Positions 2,655 to 57,607 of a stretch of 64,000 nucleotides of DNA are shown here, one piece after another. The notes below the pieces were generated by a model. It did no database searches. It had not been told where the DNA came from and was given only the letters and a program-made list of their open reading frames with translations. The translations under genes and the position numbers were made by a program. Source of the stretch: Escherichia coli O127:H6 str. E2348/69 (GTDB lineage Bacteria; Pseudomonadota; Gammaproteobacteria; Enterobacterales; Enterobacteriaceae); NCBI RefSeq assembly GCF_000026545.1, contig NC_011601.1; one strand, written 5' to 3'. The first letter of the stretch is position 1, and each line of letters opens with the position of its first letter.

Positions 2655-3760
2655 CGCGCCAGCTTAAGCGCAGTCTTCGGTACACAACTACAGCAAAGAA
2701 TAGTGCCATCATCGCCTATTGCTGATTTTTTTAGCGGCGTGACTTCGCCTTCTAAAAGCTGAACACGGCAACTTCCACAAATGCCCGCGCGGCAAGAATA
2801 AGGGATACGAATTCCCTGATTTTCTAATTGCTCCAGCAGCACCTGTTGGTTATTTCCACGAAATGCCTGTCCCTGCCAGTCAATATCTACGTTTGCGTCC
2901 GGTTGTTGCGTGATGTTGGCAGTATCATCAGCGGCACCTGCGCCGTAAATTTTAGCCGGAGCCGTTGCCAGAATTTCCACCTCGTCGCCAACGCGAATCA
3001 CGCCGCTATTACGGGCAATTAAATTCTGACCAAAATCGACATCGCCGTTATCCTGGGCAGTACGGAAAGATTGCAGCGTTTTTAATGGTTCGCCTGCCGG
3101 ATGTTTTTGCCCTTTTTCTGGGCTGACGGTGGTGAAAATACAGCGGCTACAAGGCTTAACCACATCAAACACGACATCACCAATGCGAATCACTTTCCAG
3201 CTATCTTCTTCCCAGGCCGATGCACCGGAAACCACCAGATTGGGGCGGAATTGCTCCATTTTTACACTGGCCGGACAACGTTGTTGGAGATCACGTAACG
3301 AGGCCTCGTTAGCAAGAAGGTAAGGATAGCCATCAGCAAATGACAGGGGTACAGTGTTGTGGCGTTTCACGCGCCGGGTCATTTGTGGCCCCACCCAGCG
3401 TAATTGCACTTCGCGGGAGAAAAATCCACTTAGCCATTTGTTGATCGCGTCTGGCGCAATTCGCGCGGTAAAATGTGTGCCCCAAACTTCGGTTGGTGCG
3501 TCTTGTGTGGCGAAATCAGCAAAACGAACATATGCACTACTGCCATCTGGTGCGGTGAGATGCAAGCCATCATGCACGGGTGAAGGAGTAAACCGTACCA
3601 TTAGCGGAAACTGGCGAGCGGTAATAAACGTACCGTCAGGTTCCGTGATCATAAAGATGCGATCGAAGGCCAGACCACTGACATCTGCCAGGGTATGTGT
3701 AAGACCAATGCCGCGCATCGATTTAACAGGATGAATAAAAAGCCGGGTTAATGTCGCCAC
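2651..3760 (-). CDS. ycbX: MOSC-domain 2Fe-2S protein YcbX
   Basis: 369-aa ORF with C-terminal Cys-rich ferredoxin-like tail; K-12 synteny. Confidence 0.85.
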
Positions 3761-28153: not shown

Positions 28154-29272
28154 ATGAATAACGAGGAAACATTTTACCAGGCCATGCGGCGTCAGGGCGT
28201 TACCCGGCGCAGCTTTCTCAAATATTGTAGTCTGGCTGCCACGTCGCTGGGATTAGGCGCGGGAATGGCACCAAAGATTGCTTGGGCGCTGGAGAATAAA
28301 CCGCGCATTCCGGTGGTATGGATCCACGGTCTGGAATGCACCTGCTGTACCGAATCTTTTATCCGCTCCGCTCACCCACTGGCGAAGGACGTCATCCTTT
28401 CCCTGATTTCCCTCGATTACGACGATACTTTGATGGCTGCCGCCGGAACCCAGGCGGAAGAAGTCTTTGAAGACATCATCACGCAATACAATGGCAAATA
28501 TATCCTCGCCGTTGAAGGTAATCCGCCGCTGGGCGAGCAGGGGATGTTCTGTATCAGCAGCGGTCGACCGTTTATTGAGAAACTCAAACGTGCCGCTGCC
28601 GGAGCCAGTGCGATTATCGCCTGGGGAACCTGCGCGTCCTGGGGCTGCGTGCAGGCCGCGCGACCCAATCCGACGCAGGCAACGCCTATCGACAAAGTCA
28701 TCACCGACAAACCTATTATCAAAGTACCTGGCTGCCCGCCGATCCCGGATGTGATGAGCGCCATCATTACTTACATGGTGACCTTTGATCGCTTGCCAGA
28801 TGTCGACAGAATGGGCCGTCCGTTGATGTTCTATGGTCAGCGAATCCACGATAAATGCTATCGCCGCGCTCACTTCGACGCCGGAGAGTTCGTGCAGAGT
28901 TGGGATGATGACGCTGCCCGCAAAGGTTACTGCCTGTACAAAATGGGCTGCAAAGGGCCTACCACCTATAACGCCTGTTCCTCCACACGCTGGAACGATG
29001 GCGTTTCCTTCCCGATCCAGTCAGGTCACGGCTGCCTGGGTTGTGCGGAAAATGGTTTCTGGGATCGTGGTTCGTTCTACAGCCGCGTGGTCGATATTCC
29101 ACAAATGGGTACCCATTCCACCGCCGACACCGTCGGTTTAACCGCGCTTGGCGTGGTGGCAGCGGCTGTTGGTGTGCACGCAGTCGCCAGCGCCGTTGAC
29201 CAGCGCAGACGTCATAACCAGCAACCTACAGAAACCGAACATCAGCCAGGCAATGAGGATAAACAGGCATGA
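28154..29272 (+). CDS. hyaA: hydrogenase-1 small subunit
   Basis: 372-aa product from ATG 28154 with Tat signal RRSFLK. Confidence 0.9.
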
Positions 29273-31062
29273 GCACTCAGTACGAAACTCAGGGATACAC
29301 CATCAACAATGCCGGACGCCGCCTGGTGGTCGACCCGATTACGCGCATTGAAGGCCACATGCGCTGCGAAGTGAATATTAACGATCAGAATGTGATCACC
29401 AATGCCGTCTCCTGCGGCACCATGTTTCGCGGGCTGGAGATCATCCTGCAAGGGCGTGACCCGCGCGATGCGTGGGCGTTCGTTGAACGTATCTGCGGCG
29501 TCTGTACTGGCGTACACGCCCTGGCTTCGGTTTACGCCATCGAAGATGCCATCGGTATTAAAGTGCCGGATAACGCCAATATCATCCGCAACATTATGCT
29601 GGCAACGCTCTGGTGCCACGATCATCTGGTGCACTTCTATCAGCTTGCCGGGATGGACTGGATCGATGTGTTAGATGCGCTGAAAGCCGACCCGCGGAAA
29701 ACCTCCGAACTGGCGCAAAGCCTCTCCTCATGGCCGAAATCATCCCCTGGCTATTTCTTCGACGTACAAAACCGCCTGAAGAAATTCGTTGAAGGCGGGC
29801 AGTTGGGGATCTTCCGCAATGGCTACTGGGGGCACCCGCAGTACAAACTGCCGCCAGAAGCCAACCTGATGGGCTTTGCCCACTATCTCGAAGCTCTCGA
29901 TTTCCAGCGTGAAATTGTCAAAATCCACGCGGTCTTTGGTGGTAAAAACCCGCATCCAAACTGGATTGTCGGAGGGATGCCTTGCGCCATTAACATTGAC
30001 GAAAGCGGCGCAGTCGGGGCGGTCAATATGGAACGCCTGAACCTGGTGCAGTCGATCATTACCCGTACGGCGGATTTCATTAACAACGTGATGATCCCCG
30101 ACGCCTTAGCCATCGGCCAGTTCAACAAACCGTGGAGCGAAATCGGCACGGGTCTTTCTGATAAATGTGTCCTCAGCTACGGTGCATTCCCGGATATTGC
30201 CAACGACTTTGGTGAGAAAAGTCTGCTGATGCCTGGCGGCGCGGTGATTAACGGCGACTTCAAAAATGTGCTGCCAGTGGATTTAGTTGATCCGCAGCAG
30301 GTGCAGGAGTTTGTTGACCATGCCTGGTATCGTTATCCCAACGATCAGGTTGGGCGTCATCCGTTCGATGGCATTACCGACCCGTGGTACAACCCCGGCG
30401 ATGTCAAAGGCAGCGATACCAACATTCAGCAGCTGAATGAACAGGAACGCTACTCGTGGATCAAAGCGCCACGCTGGCGCGGTAACGCGATGGAAGTGGG
30501 GCCGCTGGCACGCACGTTAATCGCTTATCACAAAGGCGATGCTGCGACCGTTGAGTCGGTCGATCGCATGATGTCGGCGTTGAACCTGCCGCTTTCCGGC
30601 ATCCAGTCAACGTTAGGCCGCATTTTGTGCCGCGCGCACGAAGCACAGTGGGCCGCAGGTAAGTTGCAGTATTTCTTCGATAAGCTGATGACCAACCTGA
30701 AAAACGGCAATCTTGCCACCGCTTCCACGGAAAAATGGGAACCAGCAACCTGGCCGACAGAGTGCCGTGGTGTCGGTTTTACCGAAGCGCCGCGCGGGGC
30801 GTTAGGCCACTGGGCTGCCATTCGCGATGGCAAGATTGATCTCTATCAGTGCGTGGTGCCGACCACCTGGAACGCCAGCCCGCGCGATCCCAAAGGGCAG
30901 ATTGGTGCTTATGAAGCGGCGCTGATGAACACCAAAATGGCGATCCCCGAGCAACCGCTGGAGATCCTGCGTACTCTGCACAGCTTTGACCCGTGCCTCG
31001 CCTGTTCAACACACGTGCTGGGCGACGACGGTAGCGAGCTGATCTCCGTGCAGGTGCGTTAA
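29269..31062 (+). CDS. hyaB: hydrogenase-1 large subunit
   Basis: 597-aa [NiFe] large subunit with RxCGxC N-terminal and DPCxxC C-terminal metal-site motifs. Confidence 0.9.
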
Positions 31063-48689: not shown

Positions 48690-51422
48690 TCAGGTCTTTC
48701 TTATTAACCATGCTTCCAGAGCGGCAACACTGCGTGTAATTTCTTCGTGTGGAAGGGGGGCAGATAATGGCTGCTGCTCCAGTTGTGCGCATTGCTGGCT
48801 GGCGCTACGCATTCCCAGACTCGAGCAACTGCTTTTTAGCTGATGTGCGGCACGCTTTATTTTCTCGTTATCCTGACTGGCGCGGGCAATGTCGATTTCA
48901 TCGAGAAGCGGCAGGGCATGTTGTTTAAATAATATCAGCCATTCGTGGAGCTTCTCCGCCCCCATTAAATGAGCATCTTCATTGAGTTGCGATACATCCA
49001 GTGGTTGATCGTTATTGACTTGCAGTTGGAGATAGTGCGCCAGTAATTGACCGAGCACTTCACGCGGCACCGGTTTAGGGATAATCCCGCGAAATAGCGA
49101 ACTGGTACGCTGTCGCAGTGTTTCGTCAATGACATGGGCGCTAAAGCCAATCAAAACCAGTGACGGATATTGCTGTGCCAGTTGCCGGGCAAGGGTAATG
49201 CCGTCGATATCCGGCAGATCAAAATCCACCAGTGCGGCAGCAAACGGTTCGCTATTTTGCAATGCCTCTATTGCCTGCGCGGCATTTCCTACGGCAACGA
49301 CCTGCGCACCACTGGTGTTCAGCATTTCGACAGTAATTCGCTGGGTGAGCGGGTTATCTTCAATTAACAGCAAACGCAAATCGTCCAGACGTACCGCCTG
49401 ATTGACTGTTTTGGGCACGGGTGCAGTGGCAATACGTAACGGCAAGCGTAAACAAAAACAGCTTCCAACCTCCGGCGTGCTGGTGGCGCTCAGTTCGCCA
49501 CCCATCGCCTGGGCCAGGCGGCTACTGATAGTCAGCCCCAGCCCGGTGCCGCCGCGTTTGCCGCTAACCTGAACAAATGGCTGGAAGATTTTAGCCAGTT
49601 TCGCGGGATCAATACCGCAGCCGCTGTCTTCCACTTCGACCAGCCATTGTTCGCCATCAGTGCGACTACGCAGAATAATGTGCCCTTCGTCGGTGAAACG
49701 CAGGGCGTTGCTCAACAGGTTGGTAATGACCTGACGAATACGCCGCGGATCGCCCATTAACGCAGTCGGTACATCGTCGGCAATTTCTGTTGCCAGGCGA
49801 ATCGGGCGACCTTTCACCCTTCCGCTCATTAATTGCAGGGTACTTTCCAGCAGCGGGCGCGGTTCAAAGGGTTCATCGCTGACCGAAACATTCTTGCCGC
49901 CTGCTTCGATAGCCGAATAATCGAGAATATCGTTGAGGATGGTCAGCAACGATTCACCAGAGTCGGTAATCGCCCGCAAATCATCGCGCTGGGCGTTAAG
50001 TGCGGGGTTATCTGCCAGCAACTGTGCGGTGCCGAGAATACCGTACAGCGGTGTGCGGATCTCATGGCTCATCGCCGCCAGAAACGCTGATTTTGCCTGG
50101 TTGGCTTTTTCTGCTTCCGCCCGTGCCTGTCGGTGTTCTATCACCAGTTCCTGCAATTCAGCTGTACGCGCTTTGACCTGCGCCGCCAACTGTTCACGGT
50201 GGCGATTCAGTGCATGAACACTGCTGCGAAACGCATCCATCAGCCGCCCGATGGTATCCAGCTCCCGTACGCCAGCGGTTTCCGGGAAAGGGGAGTCAAT
50301 ATCACCGTCCAGCAGTCGTTGCAGCGCCTGCGTTTGTTCGGCAAGTGGACGCGTGACTGAGCGATAAACCACGCGCCAGAGGATCAGTATCAGTGCGCAA
50401 AGTGAAACCATCCCCAGCAATAACAGGCTGTATTGCCCGCGTGCACTGGCTTTTTCCAGATGCGCCAGTCCGTGCTGATTACGCAGCTCAATGGTGTCGA
50501 CCAGCTGACTGACTTCGCTACTAAACTGCGCGAATTGGGCGATGTTATTTTGGGCGAGAGTTTGCAGGTGATTGCTGATTTCACTGTCCTGCTGATACAG
50601 CGCCAGCAAATCGCTATATTGGCTAACGGTAGTTAACGTTGTTGCTACCTGAGTACGAACACCCGGATCTTCAATGCGTATTTGCCGACGTTGCAGAATT
50701 TTCACCGCATTATTGAGCTGCTTTTCCAGCGTTGGCGCATTTTTCTGGATCTGTTCCAGCCCCAGATTCATCACCATTTGCTGCACCCGCAGGGCGCTAA
50801 GGCGCAGTTCATTCATCTGGTTAACATACTCAAGATCGATATCAATCAGCCGATCGAGTGCACTTTCTGCGGCCTGACGCTGATGTTGTTCGATCAAATC
50901 GTAAATCCCGGCCTGGGTCGCTCCGGCGGAGGTTGCCGCATTATTCGCCTGACCTTGCGCCAGGCGTGCGATCTCATCGGCGGCGGCGACTATCTGCTGA
51001 CTGAGTTGCTGTTGTTGCTGGCGCAGTTGCAAACGCTGTCCCACCAGTTCCCCTTGCTGACGTAACGAACGGGAGATCTCCTGCTCCTGTTGTTCAATAG
51101 CGGTGGTGTCAAAACCTTGTTCCCGTAACGCTTGCAGCAACGCATTAATCTTCAGGCTTTGTGCGGTGAGCATTCGCCCCTGCGCCTGCCACATCTTTTC
51201 GTTATCGGCACTGGTCAGGTTCTGCGCGGCGAAAAGTTCCCAGGCGCTGGCTTCGCTCAACTGGCGCGCCATATTCATGGTAGGAATCAATGCCTGAGTG
51301 TTGTCTTTTTCCACCTGGCTGATAAAGCGCAGGTTGTACCATCCCACCAGGGTACTGGTCAGGGTTAACAGCGCCATCAGGGCAAAGCCCATCCAGAGTC
51401 TTCGGGTCAGGGTTAAATTCAC
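48690..51422 (-). CDS. torS: TMAO sensor hybrid histidine kinase TorS
   Basis: 910-aa ORF with HAMP, HisKA (SHEIRTP), ATPase, receiver (DFDLPDIDG) and HPt domains; GTG start at 51422. Confidence 0.9.
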
Positions 51423-51516
51423 GGTCGGTGCACTTTGGGTGAATAAGTTGTATATTTAAAATCTCTTTAATTATCAGTAAATTAATGTAAGTAGGTCATT
51501 ATTAGTCAAAATAAAA
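51423..51516. other. attL region (bacterial/phage junction plus P' arm) between torS start and int stop
   Basis: Only 94 bp separate the torS start from the int stop; the junction must lie here, core not resolved by eye. Confidence 0.5.
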
Positions 51517-52590
51517 TCATTTGTCGATTTCAATTTTGTCCCATTCCCGTCCACGGCTGTCCCTATACCGCGCCGCCATTGAATCTGATTTATGCCCGAG
51601 AAGACGTTGAGCAAACTTATCGCCAATCTGGTTCCGGTATAGCCTCGCTGACAGGCTACGCAGTTCATGGAATGTTGGCGGGTTTCCATCAAATGAGAGG
51701 CCAGATGCATTTCTCGCCTTTGTAAAATACTTTGATACTGTTTTCGGGGAAAGCGGATCGTGATGCTTTGATGCGATTATAGTTTCACTGCTGCTGGCCT
51801 CCCTGCATTTCTGTAGTGTATCAGCCAATGAGATATTGAGCGCGTCAATCGTTAGCGTTAGCGGAATGGCGAGTTTAGCCCCTGTTTTACTCTGTTTAAT
51901 GTGAAGATGGTTGTCGTTTATGTCTGACCATTTCATTCTGCACAAATCGCCGACTCTCTGCCCTGTAACGACGGCCAAATCCATCGCCAGCCTTAGCCAG
52001 ATAGGGAGAGGTTCGGCTGCATGGTAAATCTCGACATACTCATTAGCTGTCAGCCTTGAGCGCCTTACTTCTGACTTTGCTGTACGGGTTGCTGTTACCG
52101 GATTCGTTGCCACATGCCCCTCGGCTATTGCTTCACGAAAAACGTCAACAAGGGTTGACCTGATTAATTTTGCGGAAGCTGCTTTACCTTCTGCTACGTA
52201 GGTGTTTAGCATTGCTGCCACTTCTTTCGTTGATATGTCAGTGAGCGGTTTGTCCGGCAATTTTCTTCGGATTGCCCTGATTTTGCTGGCGTAGTCGAGT
52301 AGAGTTTTCGGCCTGATCCCCCTTTCGGTGAGGATTGTTTCATATCGGTCAAGCCACACATGAAGAGTGATTGCGTCACCGCCTTTAATTCTGTCTATCA
52401 GTGATTTGCGTCCGCTGTCTGAGAGTAACTCAATATTGGCCTGTATTGCTTCAGTGATTGCTATCCTCCTGTCTCGGCCTAATCCAAACTCTTTACCCGT
52501 CCTTGGGTCCCTGTAGCAGTAATATCCATTGTTTCTTATATAAAGGTTAGGGGGTAAATCCCGGCGCTCATGACTTCGCCTTCTTCCCAT
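51517..52590 (-). CDS. int: lambda-family tyrosine integrase
   Basis: 357 aa; N-terminus MGRRRSHERRDLPPNLYIRNNGYYCYRDPRTGKEFGLGRDRRIAITEAIQANIEL matches lambda Int arm-binding domain; catalytic region diverges (HK022-like?). Confidence 0.95.
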   Translation of the reverse strand: MGRRRSHERRDLPPNLYIRNNGYYCYRDPRTGKEFGLGRDRRIAITEAIQANIELLSDSGRKSLIDRIKGGDAITLHVWLDRYETILTERGIRPKTLLDYASKIRAIRRKLPDKPLTDISTKEVAAMLNTYVAEGKAASAKLIRSTLVDVFREAIAEGHVATNPVTATRTAKSEVRRSRLTANEYVEIYHAAEPLPIWLRLAMDLAVVTGQRVGDLCRMKWSDINDNHLHIKQSKTGAKLAIPLTLTIDALNISLADTLQKCREASSSETIIASKHHDPLSPKTVSKYFTKARNASGLSFDGNPPTFHELRSLSARLYRNQIGDKFAQRLLGHKSDSMAARYRDSRGREWDKIEIDK

Positions 52591-52786
52591 TTCTGATCCT
52601 CTTCAAAAGGCTACCTGTTACTGGTCGATTTAAGTCAACCTTTACCGCTGATTCGTGGAACAGATACTCTCTTCCATCCTTAACCGGAGGAGGGAATATC
52701 CTGCACTCGCGTACCCATCGACGAACTGTTTCAAGGCTTCTTGGGCGTCGCTGGCGTGCGTTCCACTCCTGAAGTGTCAAGTACAT
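52568..52786 (-). CDS. xis: excisionase
   Basis: 72 aa MYLTLQEWNARQRRPRSLETVRRWVRECRIFPPPVKDGREYLF, essentially lambda Xis; overlaps int start. Confidence 0.95.
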   Translation of the reverse strand: MYLTLQEWNARQRRPRSLETVRRWVRECRIFPPPVKDGREYLFHESAVKVDLNRPVTGSLLKRIRNGKKAKS

Positions 52787-52825
52787 CGCAAAGTCTCCGC
52801 AATTACACGCAAGAAAAAACCGCCA

Positions 52826-52993
52826 TCAGGCGGCTTGGTGTTCTTTCAGTTCTTCAATTCGAATATTGGTTACGTCTGCATGTGCTATCTGTGCCCATAT
52901 CATCCAGTGGTCATAGCAGTCGTTGATGTTCTCTGCTTCGATAACTCTGTTGAATGGCTCTCCATTCCATTCACCTGTGACTCGGAAGTGCAT
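52826..52993 (-). CDS. small hypothetical phage protein (55 aa)
   Basis: Hand-translated minus-strand ORF MHFRVTGEWNGEPFNRVIEAENINDCYDHWMIWAQIAHADVTNIRIEELKEHQAA between xis and ea8.5; not in ORF track. Confidence 0.3.
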   Translation of the reverse strand: MHFRVTGEWNGEPFNRVIEAENINDCYDHWMIWAQIAHADVTNIRIEELKEHQAA

Positions 52994-53081
52994 TTATCAT
53001 CTCCATAAAACAAAACTCGCCGTAGCGAGTTCAGATAAAATAAATCCCCGCGAGTGCGAGGATTGTTATGTAATATTGGGT

Positions 53082-53363
53082 TTAATCATCTATATGTTTT
53101 GTACAGAGAGGGCAAGTATCGTTTCCACCGTACTCGTGATAATAATTTTGCACGGTATCAGTCATTTCTCGCACATTGCAGAATGGGGATTTGTCTTCAT
53201 TAGACTTATAAACCTTCATGGAATATTTGTATGCCGACTCTATATCTATACCTTCATCTACATAAACACCTTCGTGATGTCTGCATGGAGACAAGACACC
53301 GGATCTGCACAACATTGATAACGCCCAATCTTTTTGCTCAGACTCTAACTCATTGATACTCAT
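53082..53363 (-). CDS. ea8.5: Ea8.5-like protein (Cys/His-rich)
   Basis: 93 aa, position after xis as in lambda; C19, C27, H29/H30, C62, C85, C88, H91 suggest zinc binding. Confidence 0.6.
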   Translation of the reverse strand: MSINELESEQKDWALSMLCRSGVLSPCRHHEGVYVDEGIDIESAYKYSMKVYKSNEDKSPFCNVREMTDTVQNYYHEYGGNDTCPLCTKHIDD

Positions 53364-53565
53364 TTATAAACTCCTTGCAATGTATGTCGTTTCAGCTAAA
53401 CGGTATCAGCAATGTTTATGTAAAGAAACAGTAAGATAATACTCAACCCGATGTTTGAGTACGGCCATCATCTGACACTACAGACTCTGGCATCGCTGTG
53501 AAGACGACGCGAAATTCAGCATTTTCACAAGCGTTATCTTTTACAAACCCGTATTCCTGCTCATA

Positions 53566-54234
53566 TCATTCTCCTTTGATGCGAATGCCAGCGGCGCGGA
53601 TAGATTTCCATTGTTCCCATATGCGGTTGAAGTCTGTTCCTGATAAGGTCGCGTTACGGTATCCAGTTTCGGTGCGCAATCCTTCAAGCGTCGATTTGGA
53701 AATACAAATTGAATGCATTACCCATGATTCGAACAAATCACGCTCCCGGGCTTCGCAACTTTGCTTACTCATCTCTTCGATACGTTCAGCCATCGCAGCA
53801 CACTCTTCAAAGTTACTTAATGCTTTTCGCTCCCATTCGGCGCATTGTTTTCCAAGCTCTGCAATCAGCTTGTCTTTGCCTTCCAGCTCAACTCGCAGCT
53901 TCCCTACCGTTAGCGCAATATCCTCGTTCTCCTGATCACGGCTTTTGATGTATTGCTGGTTTCTTTCCCGTTCATCCAGCAGCGCCAGCACGGTAGCTGG
54001 ACTGGCTGCGGCGATGAATTCAGCATTGGCCTGCTGTTCCATTTGGAAATCTTCATCGAAACCGCTTTCAGGATGCGCTCCTTCAATTATGCAAATGGGA
54101 ATATATCCAGCAGCCTCGCGATGAATTAGCGCATCATCACAATCAAATCGGCTCTCTCCATATTCGAGCGACCATACACCACACGTTGCTTTTTCTGCCT
54201 TGGCACGCAGTGCCTCATAGTCAATCTTGCTCAC
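53566..54234 (-). CDS. Ead/Ea22-like protein with coiled-coil C-terminal half
   Basis: N-terminal [18 protein letters not shown]... is the conserved Ea22-type start; probable GTG start at 54234 six nt after RBS aaggagg and overlapping upstream stop (alternative ATG at 54267). Confidence 0.6.
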   Translation of the reverse strand: MSKIDYEALRAKAEKATCGVWSLEYGESRFDCDDALIHREAAGYIPICIIEGAHPESGFDEDFQMEQQANAEFIAAASPATVLALLDERERNQQYIKSRDQENEDIALTVGKLRVELEGKDKLIAELGKQCAEWERKALSNFEECAAMAERIEEMSKQSCEARERDLFESWVMHSICISKSTLEGLRTETGYRNATLSGTDFNRIWEQWKSIRAAGIRIKGE

Positions 54235-54812
54235 TGGTTGCCTCCTTTGCGAATCTGTTCCGCCCATTCTTCAAGGGATTTCTCCGCATATTCACCGGAC
54301 AGGCCATCAATCGGGTGCAGTTCATTAGCCAACTCTTCTTTCGCTGACAGAATCATGCGTGTAACGTCGAAAACTTCACGCAAAGACTTATTGATAAATC
54401 CGTGGTTGAAAGCAGCAGCAAGACGGCTGGCGGTATAGTTAATCCCCTCGTTGCGTGCTTCTGCACGAATTTCAGCCAGAAAAGCATCGGTAGCTGGGGT
54501 GTCTGATTGCAGAAACTTTGCGCGATAGTCATTCCACCCTCTTGCATACATGGGATTAACTTGCACTCCATCTTTTACGCAATATGCCTGCCCTCCACGG
54601 TTGATAACCTTGATTTCGTCCATAGCGCCAGACTTCAGCCCCGCATTCTCCGCTGCCAGCGCCGCGCACTTGGCCTCAGCTTCAGCAAATTTACGCACCA
54701 TATATTCAGCATTTGTTTCGTTAACCTTTAAATCACATGAGATGCATTTACCTTTCAGAAATCCATCCATCTCAATTAGTGTCATTCGTTTCATTTCTTC
54801 CCACTCCGCCAC
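54231..54812 (-). CDS. hypothetical phage protein (193 aa)
   Basis: Long ORF in lambda b2/ea region, tightly packed with neighbours; no recognisable motif. Confidence 0.5.
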
Positions 54813-54973
54813 ATCGCATTCAGATATTTGTTTTGATTCACTGACGGAGAAGAATTTCTCTTAAGCAATTCCTCTCTCGATGGCATTGGCTTTACGCGTT
54901 GGCGAATAATCATTTCTGCCGGAAGAATGCCGGGATTGTATGCAAGTCCTCTCATGGTAAATTCCTCAGTCAT
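54791..54973 (-). CDS. hypothetical small phage protein (about 60 aa)
   Basis: Internal Met ([15 protein letters not shown]...) of ORF 54791..55105 gives a start just past the upstream stop. Confidence 0.3.
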
Positions 54974-55259
54974 TACTGATAGCGCCATAGCGTGAGCGGT
55001 AATTACGCAGGCGCGGGTCAATTTCAGGGAAGTGTGTATATGCGGCTTTGCGGAATGGTCGTATTGATGTCTGGTAAATTCGCTCTCGTTCTTCTTTCTC
55101 TGCAAGCCATATACAGTGGCGAAATTCCTTTTCCTCTTTCGTTTCCTGCGGTAGCGACATTATCCGGTCGTAGTTTTTCCTGAATTTATCCAGCACCTCC
55201 GATACGGAATTGCCGGAACAGCGGCGCGGGTCATCCGCACCATACTGAGGCGCTGGCAT
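54966..55259 (-). CDS. hypothetical phage protein (97 aa)
   Basis: ORF immediately downstream of ssb. Confidence 0.45.
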
Positions 55260-55272
55260 GATTTTCTCCTGA

Positions 55273-55779
55273 TTAAATTGCGTGAATAGCGTGACGAGGG
55301 AAGGGGAGAGTTACTGGTGCAAAGGGTATATCGTCGTCAAAATCCATCGGAGGTTCGTTGTGTTGTGCTGGTGATGATTGCTGCTGTGGCTTCTGTGATT
55401 GCCTGCTGGCTGCTTGTTGTTTGCTGTCGCCAATGCCGCCAAGCATTTGCATCACGCCATTAATTCCGACATGAACCTCGGTTGTGTAACGGTCTTGCCC
55501 TGACTGGTCTTTCCACTTTCTGGTTCTCAGCATTCCCTCGAAATAAATCTGATCACCTTTTTTCACATACTGCCCCACGACCTCAGCCAGTTTCCCGGAT
55601 ACAGCAACACGATGCCATTCAGTCAATTCCTTTTGCTCGCCAGTATTTTTATCTCGCCATTGTTCTGACGTGGCTATTGTCAGGTTAGCGAACGCTGTTC
55701 CTGATGGTGAGTATCGAACTTCCGGGTCTTGTCCTACCCGACCAAGGATAATCACCTTATTTACGCCTCTGCTTGCCAT
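55273..55779 (-). CDS. ssb: phage single-stranded DNA-binding protein
   Basis: 168 aa starting [23 protein letters not shown] (OB fold), Gln/Pro-rich linker, acidic tail DFDDDIPF. Confidence 0.9.
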
Positions 55780-56487
55780 TTATGCTGCCTGTTTTAGTTC
55801 GTTAACTCTGATGTTCATTACCTGAACACATTTAGCCTGCGCCTCCTCGTTGCCAGCCATTAATTGCCAGTCACGCTGATAACGCTCGATGAGTTTTTTC
55901 TTGTCAGTTTCTGTCGCTGCATAATCGCTGAAGTCTTTCAGGATTTGTTCGCAGTCAACCGATGGAGATTTCTGGTTGGTATTTTCTGGTGATGGTTTGT
56001 TATCTGATGCTGGGATTGCCCATCCCGGCAGTGATGGAGGTAGCCAGTAAAATCCTGTTCCATCCTTCAGTTTTGCCCTGTGCCACCCCTGCTTTTTATC
56101 GAGAGATGTTTGTGCGAAACCTTCCTCAAGGTTATACAGATACCGACCGATTCCCCACTGAACGGCAGCGCGCTTCATTGCACCGGAACGACCGCCTTTG
56201 ACAGCTTCTACCTGCGTGTTTTCAGCAGCATCCCATTTGGTTACCCATTCGGAATCAATCCTGATTGATATGCCGCATTCAACGCCTCCGTTGTTGGGAA
56301 TATCGCGGTATTCATTGCGCCATCCTGCTTTGCCGCAAACATCGTCCAGACGTTTCATGATTGCCCGGTTCGTGACATAAGCCAGCACCATAGCCCACAC
56401 CTTGCCATCGCGTGTTTTACCGCTTTGCTGTATTCGCCATTCGATATCTTCAGGGCTGAATGGCTCATCGAATTTGTTCAAATCCAT
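55780..56487 (-). CDS. single-strand annealing recombinase, Rad52-like N-domain with Erf-like C-terminus
   Basis: 235 aa; N-terminal half has Rad52/Sak-type motifs (GISIRID, AMKRAAVQWGIGRYLY); C-terminal 50 aa (EQILKDFSDYAATETDKKKLIERYQRDWQ...) resembles P22 Erf C-terminus as recalled; adjacent to ssb. Confidence 0.7.
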   Translation of the reverse strand: MDLNKFDEPFSPEDIEWRIQQSGKTRDGKVWAMVLAYVTNRAIMKRLDDVCGKAGWRNEYRDIPNNGGVECGISIRIDSEWVTKWDAAENTQVEAVKGGRSGAMKRAAVQWGIGRYLYNLEEGFAQTSLDKKQGWHRAKLKDGTGFYWLPPSLPGWAIPASDNKPSPENTNQKSPSVDCEQILKDFSDYAATETDKKKLIERYQRDWQLMAGNEEAQAKCVQVMNIRVNELKQAA

Positions 56488-56586
56488 AATTCACCTCAGA
56501 ATGGACACGGCCCAAGGAAATAACGCTGATTTAATACTTCGACTCGGGACAAATTAAGGCATACCCGCATTCCTTCGCGGTCGCCA

Positions 56587-56745
56587 TTATGGCGATACCA
56601 GAGAGCTTTCTGCGTGTACATGCGTCTCTGTAACTTGCTCTCCTTCACTGTGGTTGCAAGTGACATGAATATCTCCTTCGTTACCGATTAATTCTTTCAT
56701 CTGACGAATGAATTCTTCGTCTGAGCAGTTATCTGTAAAACTCAT
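56587..56745 (-). CDS. small acidic hypothetical protein (52 aa), coupled to kil
   Basis: Hand-translated ORF MSFTDNCSDEEFIRQMKELIGNEGDIHVTCNHSEGEQVTETHVHAESSLVSP; its ATG overlaps the kil-like stop (ATGA). Confidence 0.3.
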   Translation of the reverse strand: MSFTDNCSDEEFIRQMKELIGNEGDIHVTCNHSEGEQVTETHVHAESSLVSP

Positions 56746-56894
56746 TTCCTGCGATACCACGGAAGGTTGATAGCTGATTTCATCGCTTTATTTGCTTCAA
56801 GCCACATTTTGGAATCACCAATAAATCTGGCTATTACTGCTTTGTTCTGTGCAGCACGAAGCATCTGGTGATTGATGGCTATTTCATTGCGCAT
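56742..56894 (-). CDS. kil: Kil-like host-killing small protein
   Basis: Hand-translated 50 aa MRNEIAINHQMLRAAQNKAVIARFIGDSKMWLEANKAMKSAINLPWYRRK; FIGD-x-KM motif and position next to cIII as in lambda. Confidence 0.45.
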   Translation of the reverse strand: MRNEIAINHQMLRAAQNKAVIARFIGDSKMWLEANKAMKSAINLPWYRRK

Positions 56895-57013
56895 AACGCC
56901 TCCAGTTGTTTCTTTGCTGCTCTGATTAATTGTTTAACTCGGCGTGATAATTCAGATTCGTGCGGGTAGAAAGCGGACATGACGCCGCTACCCGCGAGCT
57001 GAAAGTGCATCAT
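56879..57013 (-). CDS. cIII: cIII-like FtsH inhibitor
   Basis: 44 aa MMHFQLAGSGVMSAFYPHESELSRRVKQLIRAAKKQLEALCAMK after RBS aaggag; pattern resembles lambda CIII (AG...V...P.ES.L..R). Confidence 0.5.
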   Translation of the reverse strand: MMHFQLAGSGVMSAFYPHESELSRRVKQLIRAAKKQLEALCAMK

Positions 57014-57088
57014 GGGTAACTCCTTATATTTGATTGCATAACGAAAACGCCTCGAGTGAAGCGTTATTGGTATGCGGTAAAGCCGCAC

Positions 57089-57457
57089 TCAGGCGGCCTT
57101 GATAGTCATATCATCTGAATCAAATATTCCTGATGTATCGATATCGGTAATTCTTATTCCTTCACTACCATCCATTGGAGGCCATCCTTCCTGACCATTT
57201 CCATCATCCCAGTCGAACTCACAAACAACACCATATGCATTTAAGTCTTTCGAAATTGCTATAAGCAGAGCATGTTGCGCCAGCATGATTAATACAGCAT
57301 TTAATACAGAGCCGTGTTTATTGAGTCGGTATTCAGAGTCTGACCAGAAATTATTAATCTGGTGAAGTTTTTCCTCTGTCATTACGTCATGGTCGATTTC
57401 AATTTCTATTGATGCTTTCCAGTCGTAATCAATGATGTATTTTTTGATGTTTGACAT
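57089..57457 (-). CDS. highly acidic 122-aa protein in the lambda ea10 slot
   Basis: ORF with RBS gagga; C-terminal EFDWDDGNGQEGWPPMDGSEGIRITDIDTSGIFDSDDM; low GC; terminator directly upstream. Confidence 0.6.
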   Translation of the reverse strand: MSNIKKYIIDYDWKASIEIEIDHDVMTEEKLHQINNFWSDSEYRLNKHGSVLNAVLIMLAQHALLIAISKDLNAYGVVCEFDWDDGNGQEGWPPMDGSEGIRITDIDTSGIFDSDDMTIKAA

Positions 57458-57475
57458 CTATTCATATCCTCATAG

Positions 57476-57503
57476 ATAAAAAATCGCCCTCACATTAGAG
57501 GGC
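57476..57503 (-). terminator. intrinsic terminator between the 156-aa moron and the 122-aa gene
   Basis: Minus-strand hairpin gccctc-taatgt-gagggc followed by gatttttt. Confidence 0.7.
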
Positions 57504-57607
57504 AAAGAAGATTTCCAATAATCAGAACAAGTCGGCTCCTGTTTAGTTACGAGCGACATTGCTCCGTGTATTCACTCGTTGGAATGAATACACAGTGCTT
57601 ATTCGTA

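Follow-up and report, generated by a model that had tools for sequence, protein, structure and literature searches.

The ea8.5 and orf55 genes of phage lambda in a lambda/P22 mosaic prophage of EPEC E2348/69

For phage lambda, there are already published accounts of both the ea8.5 and orf55 genes, of the Ea8.5 family as zinc-finger proteins, of a model of Orf55, and of three terminators. Open reading frames (ORFs) of the exo–xis segment are expressed early after induction, and ea8.5 mRNA is lower downstream of terminators (PMC4195576, PMC9239242). Two homologues of Ea8.5 have been solved by NMR (PDB 2M7A and 2M7B; Kwan et al., 2013) and are characterized as having a homeodomain-like/zinc-finger hybrid fold (PMC8614690, PMC4195576). 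Ea8.5 was non-essential for plaque formation in a genome-wide CRISPRi screen from which orf55 was left out (PMC10695390). Yeast two-hybrid work has yielded Ren, Q, MinE, and tail proteins as published but unvalidated partners of Ea8.5 (PMC8614690), and further leads in the literature are modulation of CII-dependent promoters by Ea8.5 overexpression and an old cell-cycle phenotype. Donaldson (2021) published a structure model of Orf55 and proposed a resemblance of the protein to T7 Gp2 and a possible modulation of RNA polymerase; orf55 has also been described as unique to lambda (PMC8614690).

The stretch of DNA analyzed here (the window) comprises 64,000 nucleotides and is 100% identical to Escherichia coli O127:H6 E2348/69, in which the CDSs annotated at the place of interest are WP_000026224 and WP_000545733. 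Lambda and its laboratory relatives match positions 52500–53500 at 98.8% over the full 1 kb (megablast), and the RefSeq lambda features under this match are int, xis, lambdap35 (29118–29285), and ea8.5 (29374–29655). The two ORFs in question, of 93 and 55 amino acids, lie on the minus strand (Table 1) and encode proteins that are 100% identical to lambda Ea8.5 (NP_040611) and lambdap35/orf55 (NP_597778), respectively. It is highly probable that they are the lambda genes ea8.5 and orf55 and follow the operon logic described below. They are the last two accessory genes in the exo–xis segment of the leftward (pL) early operon, and in EPEC E2348/69 they are carried by a prophage of mosaic lambda/P22 type that has integrated next to torS.

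The original prediction, made from the DNA letters, had described an Ea8.5-like protein of 93 residues at the position of lambda ea8.5 and, after xis, a real 55-residue ORF that translates cleanly. Its ORF coordinates and descriptions proved correct, and the alignment that it proposed, with lambda Ea8.5 and the small ORF following xis, gave complete identity for both proteins. The smaller ORF was called Trp-rich, in agreement with a content of 3 Trp in 55 residues (5.5%), and the view of both as accessory genes with no defined role holds for lambda ea8.5 and orf55 as well. The label "b-region" was mistaken, as both genes belong to the exo–xis region of the pL early operon. The 55-residue ORF had seemed unlisted because it is absent from the original lambda GenBank record J02459 and because of a length cut-off; it is annotated both in E2348/69 (WP_000545733) and in RefSeq lambda (NP_597778), where its label is "hypothetical protein, predicted by GeneMark". 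The name orf55 was reportedly given by Sergueev et al. in 2002. The discovery value of the locus is small, and the region, having been understood correctly, needs no further attention.

Table 1. Positions in the 64,000-nucleotide window of ea8.5, orf55, their signals, and neighboring genes
Feature	Position	Strand	Basis
int	51517-52590	-	ORF reading
xis, 72 aa, downstream neighbor	52568..52786	-	Pfam PF07825 Exc, E=4e-41; annotated excisionase
Presumed CII motif TTGCGTGTAATTGC, TTGC-N6-TTGC repeat, abutting t5 T-run	52799..52812	-	Read directly; identical in lambda
Predicted intrinsic terminator t5-lambda, overlapping orf55 stop	52814..52836	-	Terminator scan; RNA fold; PMC4195576
orf55 CDS, 55 aa, 6.5 kDa, pI 4.9	52826..52993	-	Identical to lambdap35 NP_597778; phrog_676; dN/dS; AF2
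Shine-Dalgarno GGAG, 7 nt upstream of orf55 ATG	53001..53004	-	Read directly; conserved in L003-L007
Predicted intrinsic-terminator hairpin t4-lambda, directly upstream of orf55 ribosome-binding site	53013..53032	-	Terminator scan; RNA fold; PMC4195576
Predicted intrinsic-terminator hairpin t3-lambda, just after ea8.5 stop	53043..53064	-	Terminator scan; RNA fold; PMC4195576 Table 4
ea8.5 CDS, 93 aa, pI 4.8	53082..53363	-	Identical to lambda NP_040611; PF20735; 2M7A; phrog_6325
CxxC codons of putative zinc tetrad: C84 (53112-53114), C87 (53103-53105)	53103..53114	-	Invariant in family alignment
CxxH codons of putative zinc tetrad: C27 (53283-53285), H30 (53274-53276)	53274..53285	-	Invariant in homologues and 2M7A/2M7B
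Shine-Dalgarno AAGGAG, 7 nt upstream of ea8.5 ATG	53371..53376	-	Read directly
Ea22-like gene, 233 aa	53566-54267	-	ORF reading
N homologue (antiterminator)	58137-58493	-	Gene identification in prophage

The ea8.5 CDS shows no DNA difference from that of lambda and occupies the same place, between ea22 and orf55. The context upstream of ea8.5 differs: here it consists of the gene for a 233-residue Ea22-like protein and a P22-type recombination module, whereas lambda has ea22 and exo–bet–gam. Ea8.5 matches the whole Pfam profile PF20735 (Lambda_ea8_5; positions 1–90 of 90) with 164.3 bits and E=1.1e-48, against a curated cut-off of 27 bits, and it also matches phrog_6325 and, by sequence, the solved chains 2M7A (E=2.5e-18) and 2M7B (E=1e-3). 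A word-indexed search with Ea8.5 alone returned close relatives only, and a three-sequence profile was required for distant ones. The protein contains five Cys (C19, C27, C62, C84, C87) and four His (H29, H30, H76, H90), a pattern from which zinc coordination had been suspected at the outset. In the alignment with E. coli and Pseudomonas homologues (26–41% identity), only C27, H30, C84, and C87 are invariant, and the same four residues are kept in 2M7A and 2M7B; C19, H29, C62, H76, and H90 vary among homologues. The suspected zinc site would thus be a CxxH…CxxC tetrad, which from these distant homologues appears to join the N-terminal helical part to a C-terminal knuckle, and which, as far as the alignment goes, fits the published homeodomain-like/zinc-finger fold. 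Ea8.5 may be pictured as a small helical protein in which the knuckle would be clamped to the helical core by a single zinc ion, with C27, H30, C84, and C87 as the likely ligands.

Both ea8.5 and orf55 evolve under purifying selection, and each has a good ribosome-binding site (Table 1). For both, gene status was decided by homology and dN/dS, because codon usage is uninformative for genes so short. In six-frame codon-usage log-likelihoods, the annotated frames are best under a phage-trained table, marginally; under a host-trained table, an antisense frame scores slightly above the orf55 frame. The score of xis, whose gene status is proven, is no higher. The original prediction had named a lack of lambda homology together with random-like codon usage as what would speak against it; the homology is present, and codon usage at such a length is silent on the matter.

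Judged by sequence comparison, orf55 is a real protein-coding gene under purifying selection. The protein, which in lambda likewise adjoins xis, matches phrog_676 over its entire length (E=6.6e-40, positions 1–55 of 55), and the gene differs from lambda orf55 at four nucleotides, all four synonymous. Comparison with a Klebsiella prophage homologue (75% amino-acid identity) gives a dN of 0.19, a saturated dS (1.9), and a dN/dS of 0.10, and across all informative pairs dN/dS ranges from 0.10 to 0.37. Word-indexed and exhaustive profile searches of 1.8 billion representatives yielded 53 clusters of Orf55 homologues at E<=0.001, with full-length homologues down to 36% identity. In their alignment, M1, W9, and E19 are invariant and F3, T6, N10, F14, E21, D22, D25, W33, and A39 nearly so. 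All located homologues lie in the early-left operon of temperate phages, adjoining xis/int in seven loci (L003–L007, L009, and L010), with varied upstream neighbors, or just downstream of the repressor in three (L011–L013). An AlphaFold2 model built from the family alignment (pLDDT 90.6) has a β-β-α-β fold, with strands at residues 2–9, 12–19, and 41–49, a helix at 23–37, and a disordered C-terminal tail (pLDDT 56), and reproduces the published model of Donaldson (2021).

These data bear on a quite different reading, according to which the 55-residue ORF is untranslated and open by chance and the segment acts as RNA or DNA, namely as a triple terminator block and pI insulator. The ORF is indeed short and was in lambda first called by GeneMark alone, its frames are barely separated by codon-usage scoring, the segment is dense in terminator hairpins, and the disordered tail of the protein is encoded by a terminator arm. 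However, a chance ORF would not be expected to combine exclusively synonymous differences from lambda with a dN/dS of 0.10 at saturated dS, to keep its length and sequence core at 36–52% identity in other phages with unrelated flanking DNA, to have a Shine-Dalgarno sequence at ideal spacing, and to give a confident AlphaFold2 fold, while the frame antisense to it gathers non-synonymous changes only; we regard the untranslated alternative as scarcely credible and retain orf55 as a protein-coding gene.

Two long antisense ORFs on the plus strand overlap xis, orf55, and ea8.5. The 117-residue one (52655–53008) was ruled out as coding, since all nine of its substitutions relative to lambda change its amino acid; the second has 131 residues (52923–53318). 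Many database proteins are chimeras of an unrelated N-terminus with the C-terminal half, and no other part, of Orf55 or Ea8.5 (P0047, P0048, P0060, P0063, P0066, P0074, P0096; P0106, P0110). This pattern suggests that recombination breakpoints are frequent within the two genes, or that starts have been mis-called there.

Three predicted intrinsic terminators bracket orf55 as they do in lambda, and they are t3, t4, and t5 of an earlier prediction (PMC4195576 Table 4). A literature search for the named lambda terminators tL2 and tL3 gave nothing relevant, and the hairpins here correspond to the predicted t3–t5 of that study (PMC4195576). The stretch of t3 and t4 folds as RNA with −25 kcal/mol (z=−6.2). 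Besides the four synonymous substitutions in orf55, the cassette differs from lambda by one base in the t4 stem, where A here replaces G of lambda and pairing is kept (A-U here, G-U in lambda). In the t5 hairpin (52836–52817), the final two Ala codons of orf55 form the 5′ arm and its TGA stop codon occupies the loop; the hairpin is followed by a T6 run. The same stop-in-loop arrangement is seen in the homologous loci L003 (3158–3180), L004, and L011 (both about 3159–3182), and, with differing stem sequences, it persists down to 45% identity among homologues of lambda-type, Klebsiella, and metagenomic origin. L009 and L013 lack it. The arrangement may simply reflect compact phage design.

The sequence TTGCGTGTAATTGC starts one base after the T-run of t5 and carries the repeat TTGC-N6-TTGC (52799–52812), which we take to be the CII recognition motif in the −35 region of the pI (int) promoter. 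The HK630 record has a "cII" feature annotated under the match. A crude consensus scan of positions 52400–53700, by which weak or activator-dependent promoters could be missed, found no sigma-70-like promoter on the minus strand. The sole match in an Rfam scan of positions 51400–54400 (E<=1) was to Leu_leader; it is below threshold (20.7 bits vs. 50) and on the wrong strand, and is taken as chance.

As in the lambda pL operon, every gene from the N homologue through int is on the minus strand; these genes are downstream of a repressor of cI type (S24), and the prophage also encodes CII, O, P, and NinB. From this minus-strand operon order, the predicted terminators, and the failure to detect a promoter, we infer that ea8.5 and orf55 would be silent in the lysogen and, after induction or infection, would be transcribed from pL only by N-modified RNA polymerase reading through t3, t4, and t5. 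Unmodified transcripts would end at t3–t5, ahead of pI, xis, and int, and this termination would insulate the CII-dependent pI promoter, starting 1 nt after the T-run of t5.

Of 5426 complete E. coli genomes, 2486 (approximately 46%) carry orf55 DNA, in up to four copies each, and 245 (4.5%) carry ea8.5 DNA, so that orf55 is about ten times more widespread in this species. E2348/69 itself has orf55 DNA at three places. Only 21 of the 236 matching phage records reach into ea8.5. The statement that orf55 is unique to lambda (PMC8614690) is therefore wrong, given its presence in 2486 of the 5426 genomes.

The similarity shared by orf55-bearing sequences begins just upstream of the t3 hairpin and ends just after t5. 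Lambdoid phages are known to carry morons, accessory genes that are bracketed by a promoter and a terminator of their own. Like lambda bor and lom, orf55 is a discrete cassette with mosaic boundaries at terminator hairpins and has a terminator behind it. It differs from them in having two terminators in front of it and no detected promoter of its own (52400–53700), and in belonging to the early operon, with predicted silence in the lysogen. A more elaborate proposal takes orf55 and its terminators, present in about 46% of E. coli genomes, for a self-contained mobile cassette with two functions: its protein would inhibit a host protein stoichiometrically, in the manner of Gp2 or otherwise, and its stop-codon hairpin would serve as a translation-sensitive terminator gate; we consider it very unlikely in this combined form. 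The gate is speculative: a ribosome at the orf55 stop codon might occlude the 5′ arm of t5, so that read-through into xis–int by polymerase lacking antitermination would depend on translation of orf55.

The only published functional hypothesis for Orf55 is Gp2-like inhibition of RNA polymerase, and it fails tests of sequence signature. In its full form, the hypothesis would link Orf55 to T7 Gp2 (PDB 2WNM, 2LMC, 4LK0, 4LLG) by analogous function or by remote homology and would have it wedge between the β′ jaw of RNA polymerase and region 1.1 of σ70 and damp host σ70 transcription early in infection. The two proteins are near in size (55 residues for Orf55, 64 for Gp2), both are acidic, and the β-β-α-β topology that our independent AlphaFold2 model reproduces for Orf55 would be that of Gp2. 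The top Foldseek match in the PDB is T7 Gp2 in its RNA polymerase complex (4lk0_M; E=0.04, probability 0.99, 25% identity over 44 columns), and four annotated Gp2-type "RNA polymerase inhibitors" are among the matches to viral models, although Foldseek gave no match to Orf55 at E<=0.001. For the two family profiles, hhalign gives one gapless alignment of 45 columns (pairwise P=0.021) whose register agrees with that of the structural match, but it assigns the pair of families a probability of just 2.2%, and Gp2 was found neither in Pfam (E<=1) nor in a PDB profile search (E<=10). That profile search returned chance matches only, to the "VTGEWN" strand of copper nitrite reductases (E about 0.4).

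In Gp2, R56 and R58 are the residues that bind the β′ jaw. Both are located in strand β3 and are invariant in all eight homologues of a Gp2 family alignment built from eight phages. Orf55 has a matching residue at about 4 of the 15 invariant Gp2 positions, a fifth (R58) being matched in close homologues only. The essential R56 aligns with N43 of Orf55. The counterpart of R58 in Orf55 is R45, a position at which distant Orf55 homologues carry V, E, H, N, or D. The jaw-binding arginines are thus absent or not conserved, and sequence and profile similarity to Gp2 is not significant. Moreover, lambda, unlike T7, needs host RNA polymerase through its whole cycle. A role of Orf55 as a Gp2 analogue is, on balance, unlikely. 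Besides Gp2, its weak Foldseek neighbors include the UDG inhibitor p56, the antitoxin Dmd, and the anti-CRISPRs AcrIE2 and AcrIC9; judging from the model, Orf55 seems to share a generic small α/β fold with all of these and cannot be filed in the Gp2 family.

A broader possibility is that Ea8.5, Orf55, or both are counter-defense or host-takeover factors that inhibit an immunity or DNA-replication protein, which would account for the "bin" phenotype. In this old phenotype, initiation of host replication is blocked; it was mapped to orf73–ea22–ea8.5–orf55, and the literature ascribes the effect to this group of genes (PMC9239242), whereas experiments assign it to neither ea8.5 nor orf55 individually. 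Both proteins are small, acidic, early, and non-essential (the screen data being for Ea8.5), their slot in the genome is highly mosaic and accessory, and E. coli prophages carry orf55 very commonly (2486 of 5426 genomes). The presence of Dmd, p56, AcrIE2, and AcrIC9 among the fold neighbors of Orf55 points in the same direction, but these fold matches are all weak and generic, and neither protein has a sequence match to a characterized inhibitor. NCBIfam and PADLOC scans of Ea8.5 and Orf55 gave no matches, from two libraries that do not model anti-defense proteins, and this result is neutral with respect to the possibility. Overall, a role in counter-defense or host takeover seems rather improbable.

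The best-supported view is that Ea8.5 and Orf55 are small accessory proteins that are made early from an N-dependent operon and would bind partners, Ea8.5 being presumably zinc-stabilized. Ea8.5 would work by binding a partner, protein or nucleic acid, and not by catalysis, and this binding might nudge the lysis–lysogeny balance and host-cell physiology. Orf55 would be a 6.5-kDa acidic β-β-α-β protein with the size, charge, and fold of phage proteins that bind and inhibit host proteins stoichiometrically, and its conserved surface would comprise the W9-N10-G11 hairpin turn, the E19-A20-E21-D22 stretch, and W33. As far as tests go, neither gene would be required for plaque formation. The partner-binding mechanisms of the two proteins are drawn from fold and composition and are tentative, with a likelihood somewhat short of even.

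Within the prophage, int, xis, orf55, and ea8.5 are lambda-like, and the region 53566–60592 is a lambda/P22 mosaic. The gene order beyond ea8.5 is the 233-residue Ea22-like gene, a 193-residue ORF (54231–54812), DUF2737, an anti-RecBCD gene (Abc2-type), and SSB, followed by a Rad52/Rad22-type annealing protein, kil, DUF2528, the N homologue, and the S24 repressor. The 193-residue ORF has no Pfam match. The Int protein is chimeric relative to lambda Int: residues 1–55, the arm-binding domain, are identical, and overall identity is 75%. A search for lambda-type Int arm sites (AGTCACTAT, one mismatch allowed) found none near the end of int, and their count was not above chance.

The prophage adjoins torS (48690–51422) and not lambda attB. 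In RefSeq, torS of E2348/69 (LT827011) is annotated as a frameshifted pseudogene of 2744 nt (48679–51422 of the window). The window has an open torS ORF of 910 residues that ends 11 nt short of this annotated span, and the defect is therefore near the 3′ end; it looks unrelated to the prophage junction.
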